In this document: positions 4,433-64,000 of the stretch, piece by piece
Layout of the letters: each line of letters opens with the position of its first letter
Position numbering within the stretch: position 1 is the first letter of the stretch
Source of the DNA: Eubacteriales bacterium
Lineage (GTDB): Bacteria > Bacillota > Clostridia > Lachnospirales > WRAX01
Assembly: GCA_031550435.1 (NCBI GenBank)
Contig: JAVBOO010000009.1
Coordinates: 39,202 to 103,201, forward strand
Reading direction: 5' to 3'
DNA: 64,000 nt
Notes under the pieces: generated by a model
What the model saw: only the letters and a program-made list of their open reading frames with translations
The model's database searches: none
What the model was told of the DNA's origin: nothing
Made by a program: the position numbers and the translations under genes

Positions 4433-4513
4433 TAACTATGGTGTTCTTTTTATCGGGAACAATTTCCGGTTTGAGACGTAAATATCAATGACGAGAAAAT
4501 TAGGAGGGGAATA

Positions 4514-5242
4514 ATGAAAAATAAAAAAGTATTATTGTTAAGTTTTTTGGCGGGCGTGATGATTGCTACCGCAGTAAGTGTTTCTGCCGCAGGTGTCAAG
4601 CAAAAGGTTGAAGCTTATAAGAGCGCCGATGCCGTTATTACTCTTGACGGGAAAAAAATTAGCATGCCTTCCGACTATTCGGTTTTATTTTACAACGACA
4701 GAACCTATACTCCGGTGAGAACCGTTGCGGAAGCGCTTGGTGCGACTGTTACCTGGGATGAAGCGAATCAGACCGTAAAAATAGTGTCAGGTCCAACCGA
4801 AACTGCTTCTCCCTCTACCACAACTCCATCGGCGAGTTACTACGGTGATGGATATTTCTATCAGGGGTTGCCGCTCAAGAGTGTAAAGGACGGGATTACA
4901 GTTAATGTTTTCGGTTCTTATATCTATAACGACAATGTTTTGAGACTGGTATATGAGATTAAGAACAACAGAGACTATGATATATACCCAAAGTACGACA
5001 GCATTTATGTGAAGATAGACAATTCGGAGACGAAGAGCTATGATTTACCTTTATTATCTCAGGTGCCTGTTGCCGTAGGAGCTACTTATGAACTTAACTT
5101 TGATATAGAAGGTTACGAAAAGGATGATGCAAAAATTAAGCTTGTAATCCCCATTGTATATTATTCTATGGAGGCGGGCAAAGCTGTCGAAAAAAATGCG
5201 GAATTTACGTTTTACATTAATTTGGCTGAAACATTAAAATAG
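4514..5242 (+). CDS. secreted/anchored protein with an N-terminal Cu-amine-oxidase-N1-like domain, a P/T/S linker and a beta-rich C-terminal domain
   Basis: 242-aa ORF with RBS AGGAGGGG and signal/anchor MKNKKVLLLSFLAGVMIATAVSVSA. VITLDGKKISMP...YNDRTYTPVRTVAEALGATVTWDEANQTVKIV is a clear copper-amine-oxidase-N1-like repeat. The linker is GPTETASPSTTTPSAS. Confidence 0.8.
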   Translation: MKNKKVLLLSFLAGVMIATAVSVSAAGVKQKVEAYKSADAVITLDGKKISMPSDYSVLFYNDRTYTPVRTVAEALGATVTWDEANQTVKIVSGPTETASPSTTTPSASYYGDGYFYQGLPLKSVKDGITVNVFGSYIYNDNVLRLVYEIKNNRDYDIYPKYDSIYVKIDNSETKSYDLPLLSQVPVAVGATYELNFDIEGYEKDDAKIKLVIPIVYYSMEAGKAVEKNAEFTFYINLAETLK

Positions 5243-12800: not shown

Positions 12801-13406
12801 GACTATGTTATACCTTACGGCTCCAGAATTCGTGTTTCGACCGGAGATATAGTCGAAGCGGGCGACGAGCTCACCGAAGGTTCGGTTTATCCGCATGACA
12901 TACTTAAAATCAAGGGCATCAGAGGCGTTCAGGACTATATGCTTCAAGAGGTTCAGCGCGTTTACCGTTTGCAGGGCGTTGACATTAACGACAAACATAT
13001 CGAGGTAATAGTTCGCCAGATGTTGAAGCGTGTTAAAGTAGAAGACAACGGCGACAGCGAATTGCTGCCGGCAAGCCTTGTGGATTGGCTCGAGTTTGAG
13101 GAGATAAACGAAAGATTGGTTGCCGAAGGTAAGCAGCCGGCTGTCGGGACAAGAGCGCTTCTGGGTATCACAAAAGCGTCTCTGGCGACAGATTCGTTCC
13201 TGTCTGCGGCTTCGTTCCAGGAAACAACGAGAGTACTGACCGAAGCTGCGATAAAGGGTAAGGAAGATCCGCTTATCGGGTTAAAAGAGAATGTTATTAT
13301 CGGTAAGTTGATTCCTGCCGGAACAGGTATGCCTGTTTACAGAAAGATCGGTATAGAGTCTAGGCGTGAAAATGATACTGCCGCCGAAGTTTTGGCGGCC
13401 GAATAA
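9825..13406 (+). CDS. rpoC: DNA-directed RNA polymerase subunit beta'
   Basis: Blocks [29 protein letters not shown], the Zn-finger [20 protein letters not shown], the catalytic NADFDGD and HTGG. The ORF opens at ATG 9804. ATG 9825, preceded by GAAGGGAG, gives an N-terminal length closer to other Firmicutes RpoC proteins. Confidence 0.97.
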
Positions 13407-13439
13407 TAAGTCGTTTAAGATCTATTCAAGGGCGCAATA

Positions 13440-13547
13440 TTGATCCCCGATTAAACCTTGCGGTTTATTCACCCCACTTTACCGGCCCTGCGGGCCTAAG
13501 GTGGATCTAGGCGACAAGTTTAGCGAATTGTTTGAGTGTCGCCTCAA
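13440..13547 (+). mobile_element. repeat family A, copy 1 (structured ~108-bp MITE-like element with TA flanks)
   Basis: TTGATCCCCGATTAAACC...GGCGACAAGTTTAGCGAA...TGTCGCCTCAA flanked by TA (13438-39) and TA (13548-49). Homologous to 33262-33369 and 38512-38619. It lies in the rpoC 3'UTR, upstream of the terminator. Confidence 0.7.
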
Positions 13548-13559
13548 TAGTATACGGTT

Positions 13560-13601
13560 ACAGCCGTTTATGCCATTATAGGCTTAAACGGCTGTATTTT
13601 T
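13560..13601 (+). terminator. rpoC intrinsic terminator (also hairpin family E, copy 2)
   Basis: ACAGCCGTTTATGCC-ATTATA-GGCTTAAACGGCTGT (14 of 15 bp paired) followed by ATTTTT. Confidence 0.75.
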
Positions 13602-13726: not shown

Positions 13727-13755
13727 TTGACGTTTTTTCGCGTCTGTGGTATCTT
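13727..13755 (+). promoter_or_regulatory. candidate rnpB promoter
   Basis: TTGACG (13727-13732), 17-nt spacer, TATCTT (13750-13755). This places the TSS at about the first base of the P1 stem. Confidence 0.5.
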
Positions 13756-13760
13756 ATTAA

Positions 13761-14118
13761 TCGAGCAGACCGGACGGTCGCGTGCGCTTAGCCGCATGAG
13801 GAAAGTCCGGGCTTTGAAGGGCAGGGTGCCGGATAACGTCCGGCGGAGGCGACTTCAGGGACAGTGCAACAGAAATAAACCGCCGTTTTTAAAACGGTAA
13901 GGATGGAAAGGTGAGGTAAGAGCTCACCGGCGTCTTGGCGACAATACGCGCTATGTAAACCCCACCCGAAGCAAGGCCGAACAGAAGCACAGGCTCCGAT
14001 TTCGGAAGCCTAAAGATTGCCCAATCCGCTTCAGGTAGTGCCGCTCGAGGTCGCCGGCAACGGCGATCCCAGATAGATGACCGTTCAAGACAGAACCCGG
14101 CTTACAGGTCTGCTCACT
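13761..14118 (+). ncRNA. rnpB: RNase P RNA, bacterial type A
   Basis: Universal motifs GAGGAAAGTCCGGGC (about 13799-13813) and ACAGAACCCGGCTTA (about 14090-14104). The P1 stem pairs GAGCAGACC (13763-13771) with GGTCTGCTC (14107-14115). Length is ~355 nt. The ORFs predicted here are spurious. Confidence 0.93.
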
Positions 14119-14136
14119 ATTATAAACATACATGTT

Positions 14137-14681: not shown

Positions 14682-15662
14682 CTAGTGAATTTTGTACAAA
14701 ATCAACAACATATTATTAATATTTATAAGCTTTTTGACGGTTATGTTATTTAAAAACTTAATAACCCGTTCGCTTTGTTCTTCGCCGCAAAGCGAGCAGA
14801 TTTCGGCGAGAGCTTTGTTCTCCTCAGAAACTGCGGCTGCCAGGCTTTCTTTCAGTTCTCCCGGGAGCCTTATTTCTGTTTGCTCGATTTCGGGGTCCTT
14901 TGTTTTCAGTATTTTATAAAAATCGCTTAAACGCCTAAAGTTTTCGTCGTATTCGTGCTTTACGCCGTTAAAAAATCCCGAATGCTCGCCTGCGATTGCG
15001 CTGAGCTTCGCGTAGTATTGTGCGCCGTTTCTTTCGTTTTGTATAACTTCCAGCAATCTGTTTTCGCTGTTAGTATAAACAGGCATTTCCGGTATTGTAA
15101 GCTCCCGTGCGGCAGACGGGACGGCGCCGGGCTGCATACGGGGAGACATTTGCACACTTGCCTCGGGTCTGTTGTCTCCGTGCGGCAGGGCAAGACTTTT
15201 CTGTACAGCCTCAAACATTTTTTCGTCAAGCGGCTCAAATGTGACGGACGGGTCCGTATAAGGCTCTTTTGCCGGTTGGGTTTGATTTCTTGCCGGGGTG
15301 CGATTGTTTGAGATGAAGTTATTTTGGGGCTGATGTACACTGCCGGGGCTTTTGCCGAATCCTTGCTGAGACGGCGCTTGGCCGGGTTTGTTGTTACCGT
15401 TTCCGGAGAATTGTCCAAACGGTGAAAACTGGGCCCGATTAGGCTGCACGACCGCGTTTTGGTTTTGAGTATTGTTCGGCATGAAACCTTGACGGCTGCC
15501 TTGCGTGTTATTTCGGGGATATCTTTGATTAAAGCCCTGTCCGCCGTTTTGATTCGCAAAAGGACGGTTGAAGCCGTTTTGAGGAACGTTTGCGTAGTCC
15601 CGGCGGTTATAGTCCTGTCTTGAAAAGCCGAACGCGGGATTGGCGTTAAAAAAGCTGGCCAT
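14682..15662 (-). CDS. hypothetical protein with an N/Q/G/F/P-rich low-complexity N-terminal half and a helical C-terminal domain (possibly ferritin-like)
   Basis: 326-aa ORF with RBS GGAGG 5 nt before the ATG and no signal peptide. I count 24 N and 19 Q in the first ~132 residues. The C-terminal ~130 aa (LLEVIQNERNGAQYYAKLSAIAG...LAAAVSEENKALAEICSL) looks like a helical bundle. Function is unknown. Confidence 0.6.
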   Translation of the reverse strand: MASFFNANPAFGFSRQDYNRRDYANVPQNGFNRPFANQNGGQGFNQRYPRNNTQGSRQGFMPNNTQNQNAVVQPNRAQFSPFGQFSGNGNNKPGQAPSQQGFGKSPGSVHQPQNNFISNNRTPARNQTQPAKEPYTDPSVTFEPLDEKMFEAVQKSLALPHGDNRPEASVQMSPRMQPGAVPSAARELTIPEMPVYTNSENRLLEVIQNERNGAQYYAKLSAIAGEHSGFFNGVKHEYDENFRRLSDFYKILKTKDPEIEQTEIRLPGELKESLAAAVSEENKALAEICSLCGEEQSERVIKFLNNITVKKLININNMLLILYKIH

Positions 15663-16653: not shown

Positions 16654-17083
16654 ATAGGATATCCTTTAATCGATAAAGTTTGATGTTGCGATTCTTGAGA
16701 AATACCATTAATTCGGTGCTTACTCTAGTTTGCTCTTTTAGAAAAATTTTATGCCGTGAGAATGATTAAGCCGCGAATTAAGTCGGCAAAAGGAGTATAA
16801 GTGGTGATTAGACCGCATGGTTTATCGGGGGATTAATAATTTCCGCGGCGGCACCGCATATAAAAGTATTGGTCAAAAATCACAAATTTTTTGGGGTTAA
16901 ACAGTGCATTTTTTTTTGCGCGTAGGATTTTTCGTGCAAAATGAAACGACGTTTCGTATATTAATGAGTTTTGTTGGTTTAAAATATCATTTATGTGAAA
17001 CTTGATGAAAAAACAAATGGAAGCGGGCTTATTATAGCTCAAAACGACGGAAGCACCCAAAACAATCGTTAAATCAGTTTAAC

Positions 17084-21303: not shown

Positions 21304-21425
21304 GGAAGTGTTGAAAATTGCGCACGAAACCCACTTTAGTGGGTTGAGCGAGCGGCGCTCTCCATTGAAAAATGGTGCCTTTCCATTTTCAATGGAAAGC
21401 CGCAAGGCGATTTTTCAACATGCCC
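21304..21425 (+). mobile_element. MITE family B, copy 1 (122 bp)
   Basis: GGAAGTGTTGAAAATTGCG...CGATTTTTCAACATGCCC with imperfect TIRs and a 5-bp TSD, AACGA at 21299-21303 and 21426-21430. It is inserted 3 nt after the stop codon of the 1366-aa gene. Confidence 0.8.
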
Positions 21426-24068: not shown

Positions 24069-24346
24069 GCAACAAAATATATGAAAACGCTATATGGAAG
24101 TGTTGAAAATTGCGTACGAAACCCACTTTAGTGGGTTGAGCGAGCGGCGCTCTCCATTGAAAAATGGTGTTTTTCCATTTTCAATGGAAAGCCGTAAGGC
24201 AATTTTTCAACATGCCCTATATTTTGTTGTTCCCTCGCTAAGACGCAGATGCGCCGCATTGGAGCGCTGCGGCATATCTAGACGCGTCTGCTCGGCACGA
24301 GTAACCGCGTAAGTATTTTATGCGGTATTTAACTTCCGCGGTAATA
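24069..24346 (+). repeat. repeat family C, copy 1, interrupted by MITE B2
   Basis: 24069-24095 plus 24223-24346 align without gaps to C2 (38364-38512) once B2 and one TSD copy are removed. Similarity may continue to about 24370. It lies between the DUF4387-like gene and the hydro-lyase alpha gene. Confidence 0.75.
24096..24217 (+). mobile_element. MITE family B, copy 2 (122 bp), nested in C1
   Basis: Same termini as B1, with about 5 mismatches to B1 by eye. The TSD is TATAT at 24091-24095 and 24218-24222. Confidence 0.85.
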
Positions 24347-24404
24347 TGAATTTCAGGTTTCAAAAATACACCGACAAAGTCAGACTTTGTCGGCATAAGT
24401 TTGA

Positions 24405-32051: not shown

Positions 32052-33284
32052 ATGAAAACTGCTGTTGTTATTGCCGAGTATAACCCGTTTCATAACGGAC
32101 ATAAGTATCATATCGAAAAGACGCGTGAGGTCACGCACGCCGAGAACGTAGTAGTTATTATGAGCGGCAACTATGTTCAGCGCGGCGAACCGGCCATATG
32201 CGACAAGTATGTCAGGACGCGCTGCGCCTTGGAAAACGGAGCCGATATGGTGATAGAACTTCCGTTTCCTTATGCTTGCGCAAGTTCGGAAATTTTCGCT
32301 TTCGGAGCGGTATCCCTCGCGCACGAAACGAGGATTGCGGACTGTATTTGCTTTGGCTCGGAGTGCGGAGATCTGCCGCTGCTTAACGGCATAGCTGACG
32401 CGGCCGCTAATGAGGGGGAGGTATTTCGGCGCGAACTTAAACGCTGTCTGGAGGACGGGGTCTCTTTTGCAAAAGCAAGAGCAAATGCCTTGAAATCGGT
32501 TTTGGGCAATGGGTTCGAACTGAGACTGTCCAACGATATACTTGCCGTTGATTACTTAAAAACGCTGAAAAACCTCGGGTCAGCGCTCATACCGTTTACG
32601 GTTAAAAGAACAAACGACTATAATTCGTGCGAAATTGAAGGAAGTGTGGCATCTGCCACGGCTATCAGAAAGGCTATTACAGACGGAGATTACGCTGCGG
32701 TTAAAATGACCGTTCCCCCGGGCTGTCTGAAACTCTTGGAGCAATGCTTGGAAGAAGGGTCTTATCCCGTAACATCGGATATGTTTTCGGACATATTGCG
32801 TTACAGGCTTATGGCTCTTTCAAACAGCGAATTGGCGGAGATTGCGGATATATCGGAAGGTATAGAGAACAGAATGACAAAGCTTTTGCCCTGCGCGGGT
32901 TCGTTTTCGGGGCTTGTTTCGGCCGTAAAAACCAAGCGTTATTCTCAGACGAGGATACAGCGTGCTCTAATGCATGTAATATTGGGGATAACCGACAGAG
33001 ATTTGCGTGAGTTCGCAAAAAAACGTCCGCCGTATATTCGCGTGCTGGGATTCAAAAAAACAGCTTCCAAGCTGCTTTCCGAGATGGAGAGACGGGCGGA
33101 ACTGCCTGTGATAACAAATATTCCGAAGCTTCCTGAATGTTTGGATGCTCGAGCAAGGGAGCTCTTGGACAAGGAGATTACCGCCACGGACATATACAAC
33201 TCCGTGCTCCCGAAAAAGGACAGAAAAAAAGGCTACGAGTATTCGCAGCCGCTTATCGTTATTGATCCCCCGATTAAACCATGA
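32052..33284 (+). CDS. tmcAL: tRNA(Met) cytidine acetate ligase (YlbM/UPF0348 nucleotidyltransferase)
   Basis: 410 aa. The N-terminus MKTAVVIAEYNPFHNGHKYH...VIMSGNYVQRGEPA...VIELPFPYA closely parallels B. subtilis YlbM/TmcAL. The last 8 codons and the stop lie inside repeat A2. Confidence 0.9.
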   Translation: MKTAVVIAEYNPFHNGHKYHIEKTREVTHAENVVVIMSGNYVQRGEPAICDKYVRTRCALENGADMVIELPFPYACASSEIFAFGAVSLAHETRIADCICFGSECGDLPLLNGIADAAANEGEVFRRELKRCLEDGVSFAKARANALKSVLGNGFELRLSNDILAVDYLKTLKNLGSALIPFTVKRTNDYNSCEIEGSVASATAIRKAITDGDYAAVKMTVPPGCLKLLEQCLEEGSYPVTSDMFSDILRYRLMALSNSELAEIADISEGIENRMTKLLPCAGSFSGLVSAVKTKRYSQTRIQRALMHVILGITDRDLREFAKKRPPYIRVLGFKKTASKLLSEMERRAELPVITNIPKLPECLDARARELLDKEITATDIYNSVLPKKDRKKGYEYSQPLIVIDPPIKP

Positions 33285-33369
33285 GGTTTAATCACCCCCT
33301 TACACCGGCTTGCGGGCCAAAGGGGGATTGAGGCGATAAATTTAGCGAACAGTTTAATTGTCGCCTCAA
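33262..33369 (+). mobile_element. repeat family A, copy 2
   Basis: TTGATCCCCCGATTAAACCATGAGGTTTAATC...ATTGAGGCGATAAATTTAGCGAACAGTTTAATTGTCGCCTCAA. The left flank is TA and the right flank is TT. It overlaps the 3' end of tmcAL. Confidence 0.7.
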
Positions 33370-33443
33370 TTTATATGTAAACGCTGATTACTTGACTTTG
33401 GACAGAAACACGGCGGATTAAATCAGCACTTACATAAAATCAT

Positions 33444-38363: not shown

Positions 38364-38511
38364 GCAACAAAATATAGTAAAACGCTATGTTTTGCTGTAC
38401 CCTAACTAAGACGCAGATACGCCGCATTTGACCGCTGCGGCGTATCTAAGCGTGTCTGCAAGACTCAAGTAACCGTGTAAGTATTTTATTCGGTGTTTAA
38501 CTTCCGCGGTA
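38364..38511 (+). repeat. repeat family C, copy 2 (uninterrupted on its left side)
   Basis: GCAACAAAATATAGTAAAACGCTATGTTTTGCTG...GATACGCCGCA-TTTGACCGC-TGCGGCGTATC...AACTTCCGCGGTA. It serves as the empty-site paralog for the B2 insertion. Its right end is interrupted by A3, and homology to C1 resumes at 38620. Confidence 0.75.
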
Positions 38512-38619
38512 TTGATCCCCTGATTAAACATGCGGTTTAATCATCCCCTTATACCGGCCCTTCGGGCCTAAGGGGGATTGAGGCGACAAGTTTAGCGAAT
38601 ATTTTAATTGTCGCCGCAA
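38512..38619 (+). mobile_element. repeat family A, copy 3, inserted in the right end of C2
   Basis: TTGATCCCCTGATTAAAC...GGCCCTTCGGGCC...ATTGAGGCGACAAGTTTAGCGAATATTTTAATTGTCGCCGCAA flanked by TA (38510-11) and TA (38620-21). Removing it restores CCGCGGTAATAATTTCAG, compared with C1 CCGCGGTAATATGAATTTCAG. Confidence 0.75.
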
Positions 38620-38719
38620 TAATAATTTCAGAGCAAAATGATATCACTTTTAACGCAAGGTTACAAACGTTTTTTTGAAGAATAATTTAAACGGGCAAAA
38701 TGAATGGGGTATAAAACAG

Positions 38720-38749
38720 TTGACTTTGTTTAATGATAGGGCATATAAT
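38720..38749 (+). promoter_or_regulatory. orphan near-consensus promoter upstream of the mgtE leader
   Basis: TTGACT (38720-38725), 18-nt spacer, TATAAT (38744-38749). No convincing CDS follows for ~500 nt. Confidence 0.45.
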
Positions 38750-39059
38750 TGGACAAGCGCCGAATAATCTGTCTGATGCATTACTTCGGTGTGTATAATT
38801 CCGGATATTACAGAGGAGGGGAAAAAGTGGAACTTATAGGTCGAAGTACGAAGGCAGACGATACTGTACCGCTTAGGCCGGCACTTTGGCATAAGTTTGC
38901 TTTGCGCCCTTAAGAGTCTTTGAGACGGTACGTCTGCATTCGTATATACGGTTGAGAGGTATATCGGGATATAATAGCGGAACGGGAGTTTCGCGGTTTT
39001 CCTGTGCTTTTGTTAACCGTTGACGGAGCAGGCTTTTTTGTTGCCTTCATACCCGATTT

Positions 39060-39181
39060 GGGCATGTTGAAAAATCGCCTTGCGGCTTTCCATTGAAAAT
39101 GGAAAAGCACCATTTTTCAATGGAGAGTGCCGCTCGCTCAACCCACTACAGTGGGTTTCGTGCGCAATTTTCAACACTTCC
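39060..39181 (-). mobile_element. MITE family B, copy 3 (inverted orientation)
   Basis: Reverse complement of B1 with about 3 mismatches by eye. The flanks are GATTT (39055-39059) and GATTA (39182-39186). It lies ~95 nt upstream of the mgtE start. Confidence 0.8.
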
Positions 39182-63020: not shown

Positions 63021-63122
63021 TATTACCACGGAAGTTAAAAACCGCATAAAATACTTACGCGGTACTTGAGCCGAGCAGACGCGCTAAGGTGCGCCGCAGC
63101 GCGAATTATCACCGCTCAAGAC
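63021..63122 (-). repeat. repeat family C, copy 3 (5'-truncated, inverted)
   Basis: The reverse complement aligns with the right ~95 nt of C1/C2 (GCGCTGCGGC...GTCTGCTCGG...ACCGCGTAAGTATTTTATGCGGT.TTTAACTTCCGTGGTAATA). It abuts the stop codon of the U32-like gene. Confidence 0.65.
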
Positions 63123-64000
63123 TTACAGGGTGCCCTTAAAATAGTGCCCGTAGGTTATCCCGCTTTCCGCGATGTTGTCAATTTCCGAATTTTGTGGCGG
63201 ATAGCCTTTTGCAATGCAATCTACGGCATACTCGGTTAAAAGCTTTACATATTCGCCGCTTTCATCCGTGAACATCAGCCTGTAGCTGCCGGCGTTAAGA
63301 CAGTCAAGCTTACCCAGTTTTTTTATCATAAACAGCGGGCGGTCACCGAGAAGCTGAGCATAGCATTCCTCGCATTCAGTTACTATCGGCAAGAGCATGT
63401 TCATTCTGTCTCTCAGCTTAAACTGTTTGTCTGAGTTTTTATAGCGGCAGTAGCGGCCTTCGCCTTTCTCTCCTACATAAACGCCTATCGGGCAGTTGGC
63501 CGTTGTCATAACCGGTATGCGTCCGTAAATCAAAAGCTCGTTCTCGGGAACGCAGAACGACAGGTCGTCTATGGCGAGCTCGGTCGAAGGAATTACCGTG
63601 TCTGCATATTTTAGGAAAAATTCGTTCGAAAGCCTGTTAAAATCGTTTAAAGTAAAATCTAAAACCGTCTTTTTGACCGTATTCTTCAAAAGTTCGAGTT
63701 GCCCGATGGTTCTGACAAGATAACCGTCTATGCCGGAGTTTTCGTAAAAAGCAATCTTTTCTGTATAGTCGAGCCTGTTTATTGTCAAGAGGCAGACATA
63801 AATATCTACATTTCGGCTATGACATTTTGCGGCGAGCCTGTCGATGTTTTCTTCAAGGCCTTCAAATGACTCGCAGTATATGCGATTAAGCCCGGTGACT
63901 TCAAGCGCAGCGTTAAACTGTTCTTTTGTACGCACAGAAACGGCGACCTCTTTGCTTGTTCTGCCGGAAAAAGGCTTAAACACGGGCAAGGGAGGCTCGA
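63123..64000 (-). CDS. U32-family peptidase-like protein, C-terminal part (partial; open to the window edge)
   Basis: The reading frame is open to position 64000. The Cys-rich segment LLIYGRIPVMTTANCPIG...GRYCRYKN...FKLRDRMNMLLPIVTECEECYAQLL resembles the U32 peptidase core. The family assignment is moderate. Confidence 0.55.
   Translation of the reverse strand, partial: EPPLPVFKPFSGRTSKEVAVSVRTKEQFNAALEVTGLNRIYCESFEGLEENIDRLAAKCHSRNVDIYVCLLTINRLDYTEKIAFYENSGIDGYLVRTIGQLELLKNTVKKTVLDFTLNDFNRLSNEFFLKYADTVIPSTELAIDDLSFCVPENELLIYGRIPVMTTANCPIGVYVGEKGEGRYCRYKNSDKQFKLRDRMNMLLPIVTECEECYAQLLGDRPLFMIKKLGKLDCLNAGSYRLMFTDESGEYVKLLTEYAVDCIAKGYPPQNSEIDNIAESGITYGHYFKGTL

Follow-up and report, generated by a model that had tools for sequence, protein, structure and literature searches.

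Several short repeats with TA at their termini have been described from bacteria, and their inverted ends comprise 9 contiguous bp in RUP (PMC2229807, PMC10969869), 7 bp in ERIC, 4 bp in RU-3 and none in CIR (PMC2229807, Table 1). For ISY100, inverted repeats of 24 bp, which are imperfect, are likely the sole requirement in cis, and in vitro two out of 39 insertions occurred into AA/TT, which was duplicated (PMC2170065).

Here we analyse a repeat of 108 nt, called family A, in a 64-kb stretch of chromosomal DNA from an uncultured member of the Clostridia (the window, by which we mean the whole stretch). By its size, its TA termini, its non-coding nature, its nesting and its structured transcripts, family A fits the class reviewed in PMC2229807 and PMC10969869. 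It is probably, in our judgement, a non-autonomous, MITE-like 'small mobile sequence' which inserts at TA and duplicates it, served in trans by a transposase that is most likely of the IS630/Tc1-mariner type.

Copies, boundaries and insertion sites

Three intact copies of family A and one degenerate copy are found in the 64 kb:

13440..13547, + strand: copy 1, 108 nt, covariance model 104.1 bits; flanked by TA (13438-13439) and TA (13548-13549)
33262..33369, + strand: copy 2, 108 nt, covariance model 129.2 bits; flanked by TA (33260-33261) and TT (33370-33371)
38512..38619, + strand: copy 3, 108 nt, covariance model 119 bits; flanked by TA (38510-38511) and TA (38620-38621)
16749..16836, - strand: copy 4, degenerate; nhmmer E 2.6e-4 (5' 40 nt), covariance model 14.7 bits

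The covariance model separates the intact copies (104-129 bits) from the next-best matches, which reach at most 20 bits, and a 19-nt core pattern occurs three times in the window against 0.08 occurrences expected by chance. An initial annotation, made from the letters alone, had placed three copies on the plus strand, exactly where we find the intact ones, and had read the flanks as TA/TA for copies 1 and 3 and as TA/TT for copy 2, which is what the sequence holds. Its statement that all copies lie on the plus strand stands for the intact ones, but the fourth, degenerate copy on the minus strand had been missed. The identity of 75-85% that it had estimated by eye is slightly too low, as the measured pairwise values for the intact copies are 82.7-87.3%. 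Homology between the copies breaks off abruptly at two fixed positions, and their flanks are unrelated. Stop codons are present in most frames; family A has no coding capacity.

The contexts of the copies are likewise unrelated: a 3' UTR, the 3' end of a gene, a region between divergent promoters and a region upstream of a gene. The rpoC stop codon (13404-13406) precedes copy 1, and the rpoC terminator hairpin with its U-run (13559-13596) follows it. Because a stop codon stands 5' and a strong hairpin with a U-run 3' of it, copy 1 is probably part of the rpoC 3' UTR, as had already been proposed. Beyond this terminator follow a promoter-like site (13727-13755) and a class A RNase P RNA (13762-14120, + strand, 297 bits). 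Copy 2 is located between the convergent genes tmcAL and yitT. The tmcAL-like ORF (32052-33284) has its last 23 nt within this copy, and its stop codon, a TGA, falls in the hairpin-1 loop. A terminator-like hairpin with a T-run (33231-33250, - strand), apparently serving yitT, is also found inside the 3' end of tmcAL, so the yitT transcript would cross copy 2 in antisense before terminating. Copy 3 sits inside the second copy of another repeat, family C, at the 3' end of that copy and between the divergent genes eamA and mgtE, and the best promoter-like site of mgtE (38720-38749) is downstream of it. Copy 4 is found upstream of the YkuD gene; its 5' part of about 46 nt (TTAATCCCCCGATAAACCATGCGGTCTAATCACCACTTATAC) is still recognisable and the remainder eroded, with a TA 5' of the copy on its own strand.

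The ends of the element are best seen in copy 2:

33262..33279, + strand: left inverted-repeat end of copy 2, TTGATCCCCCGATTAAAC, imperfect
33352-33369: right end of copy 2, reverse complement TTGAGGCGACAATTAAAC

With its flanks the element begins with TA followed by TTGATCCCCCGATTAAAC and closes with GTTTAATTGTCGCCTCAA followed by TA. The left end of copy 2 can be written as TTGA-TCCCCC-GATTAAAC and the reverse-complemented right end as TTGA-GGCGAC-AATTAAAC. Over all instances the ends make up an inverted repeat of about 18-24 bp, imperfect and of the form TTGA-N6-RATTAAAC, matching at 10-15 out of 24 positions, and the consensus between the two flanking TA reads TTGA-N6-RATTAAAC ... GTTTAATY-N6-TCAA. 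Left and reverse-complemented right ends agree at 10-13 out of 20 positions, with the best values in copy 2 (13/20, 15/24) and only 11 matches out of 24 in copies 1 and 3. Measured against random 20-mers of the window, this corresponds to P = 2.6e-4 for copy 2 and P = 1.2e-3 for the metagenome variant described below, with values per copy of 2.6e-4 to 0.017. Contiguous inverted bases are restricted to TTGA/TCAA, and the 6-nt block differs between the ends; the TTGA/TCAA repeat noted in the initial annotation is thus correct for the contiguous part, while the repeat as a whole appears to be longer and imperfect.

The data set comprises five instances (three intact copies, one degenerate copy and one metagenome variant), and the preference for TA is based on five left flanks, four right flanks and one nested site. 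The left flank is TA in all five instances and the right flank in three out of four, in a window where TA accounts for 6% of the dinucleotides. Extended by one base the left flanks are ATA, TTA, GTA, TTA and TTA, so only the TA is conserved, and a three-base target duplication of the Tourist/IS5 type was rejected since the flanks disagree beyond TA. The TA/TT flanks of copy 2 match the occasional AA/TT targets of the IS630/Tc1-mariner-type family (PMC2170065).

The nested position of copy 3 allows a comparison of a filled site with paralogous empty ones:

38375..38511, + strand: family C copy 2 (C2), host of copy 3, end ...CCGCGGTA
24331..24347, + strand: empty site in family C copy 1 (C1), CCGCGGTAATATGAATT, paralogous
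63021..63040, - strand: empty site in family C copy 3 (C3), ...CCGTGGTAATA, paralogous

C1 ends in ...CCGCGGTAATA and C3 in ...CCGTGGTAATA, and the interrupted C2 reads CCGCGGTA, then 108 nt, then TAATA. Excision of copy 3 together with one TA turns the end of C2 into ...CCGCGGTAATA, with GGTAATA exactly as in C1 and C3, and the ATTTCAG downstream then aligns with C1. The filled site has therefore gained 110 nt at a TA, which would equally fit a 110-nt element carrying one TA. This empty-site argument had been put forward from C1 and C2; it is correct, and the third copy of the host repeat strengthens it.

Family C itself (24080-24095 plus 24218-24343, + strand; 38375-38511, + strand; 63021-63102, - strand) is about 130-145 nt long and about 84% identical between copies, with an RNA fold z of only -1.5. 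Two out of its three copies carry nested insertions, C2 that of family A copy 3 and C1 that of a second repeat family of about 122 nt, at TATAT. This 122-nt family (21304-21425, + strand; 24096-24217, + strand; 39058-39181, - strand) is 96-98% identical and much younger. Its inverted ends of about 15-20 bp (GTGTTGAAAATTGCG ... CGATTTTTCAACATG) close a branched fold (RNA z = -6.8), and its copies are bordered by the 5-bp direct repeats AACGA/AACGA, TATAT/TATAT and (T)AATC/(A)AATC. With its target duplication of 5 bp it belongs to the classical MITEs.

Hairpins, variation and a metagenome relative

Each intact copy contains three local hairpins on the plus strand, given here for copy 2:

33272..33293, + strand: hairpin 1, GATTAAACC / GGTTTAATC, 9 bp; 97% of cells paired
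33295..33326, + strand: hairpin 2, CCCCCTT / AAGGGGG around a short GC hairpin
33328..33369, + strand: hairpin 3, TTGAGGCGATAA / TTGTCGCCTCAA, 12 bp, 18-nt loop

The RNA folds of the intact copies have z-scores of -3.8 to -5.2, and none out of 200 shuffles was as good, so the conserved modules and hairpins recognised in the initial annotation are real. The stem of hairpin 3 is generally TTGAGGCGACAA/TTGTCGCCTCAA, and its terminus coincides exactly with the element boundary. An alternative fold, in which the G-run of hairpin 2 pairs with the 5' GATCCCCC (the 5'-terminal GAUCCCC), had also been foreseen and is confirmed: across the four sequences its distance from the best fold is 0.4-1.3 kcal/mol, and RNAalifold even favours it. 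The plus strand shows three G-U wobbles versus one C-A, and the DNA fold energies of both strands are nearly equal. The 7-mer ATTAAAC/GTTTAAT is present three times per element.

Among the window copies, 13 out of 66 paired columns and 13 out of 43 unpaired columns are variable (Fisher P = 0.25). Stems and loops thus change at similar rates within the window, with no sign of constraint on the inserted copies. Where stems have changed, the outcome is mostly a one-sided mismatch or a wobble; hairpin 2 of copy 1 is the exception, with a register-shifted A..U compensation. The divergence of 13-17% between the copies, together with the one eroded copy, indicates old insertions.

The only relative found is a variant of 95 nt on a 10,966-bp metagenome contig, upstream of clpS, which was detected by a scan with the 5' end and the hairpin-1 pattern. 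Its boundaries are the same, TA flanks it on both sides, and its identity to the copies of the window is 63-68%. It has no inner GC hairpin, but hairpin 1 is kept with one C-G to G-C swap and hairpin 3 with three double changes. In the structure comparison 93.6% of cells are paired and four pairs have changed on both sides, while slid controls give 29-53% and 0-1 pairs; all double changes counted come from this one variant. Between the end of the variant and the conserved -35 box of clpS lie 10 nt. Two related metagenome organisms have a conserved clpS promoter region (ACTTGATT ... TGATAAAATCAAA) in common, and all sequence upstream differs (577-674 of the contig with the variant compared with 4490-4565 of the contig of its relative).

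This pattern is expected if the structure matters for the transposing element, or if the palindrome arms are mutually homogenised, and inserted copies drift. Between the lineages the stems are maintained, and within the window they are unprotected. Such variation speaks against a functional RNA in each copy.

The RpoC protein has one match of 100% identity in the protein collection; the next relatives are 83% identical and are labelled Clostridiales, Defluviitaleaceae or Anaeropeptidivorans. Family A is absent 3' of rpoC in two relatives with this RpoC identity (covariance model, filters off), and no copy lies upstream of clpS at the eight clpS loci from relatives of the second host. Altogether the rpoC and clpS loci of relatives, about 150 kb, contain no copy (covariance model, filters off). 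A weak match in one relative contig is situated inside eutA and represents a chance hairpin.

Candidate mobilisers and rival explanations

To find a mobiliser we looked at the genes of the window and of the metagenome contig. No transposase, recombinase or HUH protein is encoded among the 37 ORFs of at least 100 aa (the longest non-overlapping set of the 64-kb window), and the window contains no IS630, tnpA/tnpB or RAYT-like gene; the search for IS630 or IS200/IS605 (tnpA/tnpB) genes with matching ends, proposed in the initial annotation as a check, gave none in the window. The 11-kb metagenome contig has no transposase gene either. All 37 ORFs are housekeeping or have no Pfam match. The genes include dus, rpoBC, veg, YkuD, a glutamate fermentation cluster, tmcAL, yitT, glycosyltransferases, eamA and mgtE, and further the pur operon, obg and a sortase. 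ORFs without a Pfam match at the thresholds used are 14682-15662 (- strand, 326 aa), 63123-63989 (- strand, 288 aa) and 38650-38892 (- strand, 80 aa). The glutamate fermentation cluster (21.6-31.8 kb, - strand) looks like a complete methylaspartate pathway, with glutaminase, fumarate hydratase alpha/beta, methylaspartate ammonia-lyase, mutase E/S, a MutL-like chaperone and a GntR regulator.

Pattern and database searches added no further relative. A scan of the genome contigs with the core of hairpin 3 (AGGCGAYAARTTTAGCGAA) gave 19 matches, each of only 19-20 nt and attributed to chance, and a metagenome scan with the hairpin-3 pattern gave nothing. Three scans of viral contigs yielded two chance matches in coding sequence and otherwise nothing, a distant blastn search found one chance match of 33 nt in plasmids and nothing in phages, and the scans of the collections revealed no longer element. 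The concatenated six-frame peptides of four elements had no real match in the protein database. With Rfam 15 at the gathering threshold the sole match in the window is the RNase P RNA (13762-14120) and family A has none; in E-value mode (E <= 10) copies 2 and 3 reach best values of 0.09-5 with unrelated families, far below threshold.

Other classes of small repeats were compared as well. No promoter-like or terminator-like site is found inside any copy on either strand, and in place of the T-run of a terminator-like repeat (SPRITE type) hairpin 3 is followed by TA(G/A/T)TAT. A tRNA-like or SINE-like origin was rejected, as ARAGORN finds nothing in the window. REP and REPIN elements consist of palindromic units of 20-40 nt, often in inverted doublets, with a conserved tetranucleotide head such as GTAG. 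A RAYT-mobilised REP/REPIN was rejected because the three hairpins of family A differ from each other, and both a repeated REP unit and a GTAG/CGTC head are missing.

The most parsimonious explanation is a MITE moved in trans by a DDE transposase of the IS630/Tc1-mariner type, because TA is present at both flanks, the nested site has gained 2 bp, the ends are imperfectly inverted and the element is small and non-coding. A MITE of this type should be multi-copy, non-coding and shorter than 300 bp, with terminal inverted repeats of about 12-30 bp, imperfect ones included, and with ends like those of a full-length IS630-family IS of the same genome. According to this model the two imperfectly inverted ends would be the signals in cis, and a transposase encoded elsewhere in the genome would act by cut-and-paste, inserting the element at TA dinucleotides with duplication of the TA. 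The transposing lineage would keep the three local hairpins and the inserted copies would drift neutrally, presumably without function for the host. Effects on host genes would be by-products, namely a structured block in the rpoC 3' UTR, a spacer beside the clpS and mgtE promoters and, in copy 2, a replaced C-terminus and stop codon of tmcAL. The initial annotation had offered three readings; the mobile, non-coding repeat inserting at TA is borne out and the IS630/Tc1-type MITE is favoured among them, while the PATE is weakened and the RNA module is the weakest. Against the IS630-type model it must be said that cut-and-paste by a DDE enzyme gives no reason for retaining hairpins 1 and 3 through four compensatory changes and leaves the two conserved, near-isoenergetic folds unexplained, and that the inverted ends are weak and a cognate IS with such ends is missing from both the window and the 11-kb contig. 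The conserved hairpins and folds would suit an undescribed, structure-dependent class of TA-inserting elements, the ends of which a mobiliser not of the IS630 type would read in the form of hairpins, or of a bistable fold of single-stranded DNA or RNA, and not as inverted duplex repeats; there the two-state fold, the G-run pairing with either C-run, may belong to the mechanism of transposition or of regulation. We regard such a class as very unlikely. The end hairpins, each local and both kept by compensatory changes between the lineages, would also suit a derivative of a single-strand transposon (an IS200/IS605-type PATE or another HUH-mobilised element), in which the left subterminal and the right terminal hairpin are recognised on one strand and insertion takes place 3' of NNTA without duplication, the element ending in ...CAATA. 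A gain of 110 nt at the nested site would result just as well without duplication, positive cumulative GC skew marks the strand of all three intact copies, and the right end, a hairpin plus TCAA, presumably resembles the right-end cleavage site of IS608. However, the hairpins which one TnpA recognises at the two ends are similar, and those of family A are unrelated in sequence (GATTAAACC versus TTGAGGCGACAA), with hairpin 3 terminal and not subterminal. The strand bias, with three out of three, reaches only P = 0.125 and the degenerate copy is on the opposite strand; moreover, the left flank is conserved at TA only and not as a 4-5-nt target, the right flank, which a PATE would leave unconstrained, is TA as well in three out of four instances, and the window has no tnpA or tnpB. 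A pre-existing IS605-type target TTGA or TTGAT was also considered for the nested site and rejected as less parsimonious, because it breaks the GGTAATA end common to C1 and C3. Taken together, a single-strand origin appears unlikely.

The same structural evidence could be explained by a functional structured RNA module, either cis-acting, as a stabiliser of mRNA 3' ends or as a conformational switch, or a small RNA, which was spread by transposition and is kept for the benefit of the host. The strong fold of the plus strand, its excess of G-U wobbles, the four compensatory pairs and the two mutually exclusive folds, about 1 kcal/mol apart in all four sequences, speak for it, as do copies 1 and 2 at the 3' ends of genes in sense orientation. 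We nevertheless consider this decidedly unlikely: there is no Rfam match even at E <= 10 and no promoter-like or terminator-like site inside the element, promoter-like sites stand downstream of copy 3 and of the clpS copy, which so are probably outside a defined transcript, and the inner GC hairpin is dispensable in the metagenome variant. Furthermore, stems are about as variable as loops within the genome with most stem changes uncompensated, and the fold energies of the two DNA strands hardly differ. Finally, the repeats might not be mobile at all, but remnants of segmental duplications or a conserved intergenic regulatory motif, such as an array of protein-binding sites, under neutral decay. 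The thrice-repeated 7-mer could be a protein-binding motif and the copy number in the accessible sequence is low, but the homology ends sharply at the same two nucleotides between unrelated flanks, the element interrupts family C precisely at a TA and overlaps the 3' end of a coding region, and it recurs in a second, distinct organism, where the locus is unrelated and the boundaries and TA flanks agree. Judged from the nested filled and empty sites, this reading is largely refuted, and we find it scarcely credible.

Family A among known elements

If family A is indeed a MITE, it represents a new family in a poorly sampled lineage of uncultured Clostridia, although the kind of element is already well known. 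It would also show how such elements reshape gene ends and intergenic regions, as with the C-terminus and stop codon of tmcAL and the insert in the rpoC 3' UTR. The three hairpins and the two-state fold, retained across two lineages, are the one feature which ordinary DDE cut-and-paste leaves unexplained. For annotation, hairpin-rich repeats of this kind should not be called small-RNA genes or riboswitch-like, as the family A copies look like decaying relics and not like working RNA genes.

Several known groups share part of these properties. PATEs (palindrome-associated transposable elements) derived from IS200/IS605 are likewise non-coding, have hairpins at or near both ends instead of classical inverted ends and may show a strand bias. 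Family A differs from them by its unlike end hairpins, TA at both flanks, a conserved left flank of only 2 nt and no tnpA/tnpB nearby. The Correia/NEMIS elements of Neisseria resemble family A in the duplication of TA, the size of about 100-150 bp, the frequent position near promoters and the structured blocks that are co-transcribed into mRNAs (PMC10969869, PMC2229807). In contrast, Correia elements possess near-perfect inverted ends of 24-26 bp, an IHF site and built-in promoters, none of which we see in family A.

CIR and RU-3/ERIC have TA at the termini, a length below 200 bp and very short or no inverted ends (PMC2229807), and in CIR of Caulobacter and Brucella the 5' and 3' sections form independent stem-loops (PMC2229807), which is similar to the separate hairpins of family A. 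However, the hosts of CIR, RU-3 and ERIC are proteobacteria and the sequences are unrelated, and CIR has a motif with a methyltransferase site. ERIC and RU-3 contain open reading frames and occur inside genes, whereas family A touches a gene in one case only, at its extreme 3' end.

RUP (repeat unit of pneumococcus), the IS630-Spn1-dependent MITE of S. pneumoniae, is the closest analogue described. With 107 bp compared to 108 bp it has almost the same length, the host is also a Firmicute, and it is non-coding, intergenic, inserted at TA and frequently nested in other repeats or IS (PMC2229807, PMC10969869). Differences concern the ends and the fold, RUP being compared here by description only: the contiguous inverted ends of family A are 4 bases long (10-15 out of 24 positions in the imperfect repeat), the ends of RUP match IS630-Spn1 while family A is without a matched IS in the data searched, and RUP forms one long end-to-end stem-loop where family A forms three separate local hairpins.
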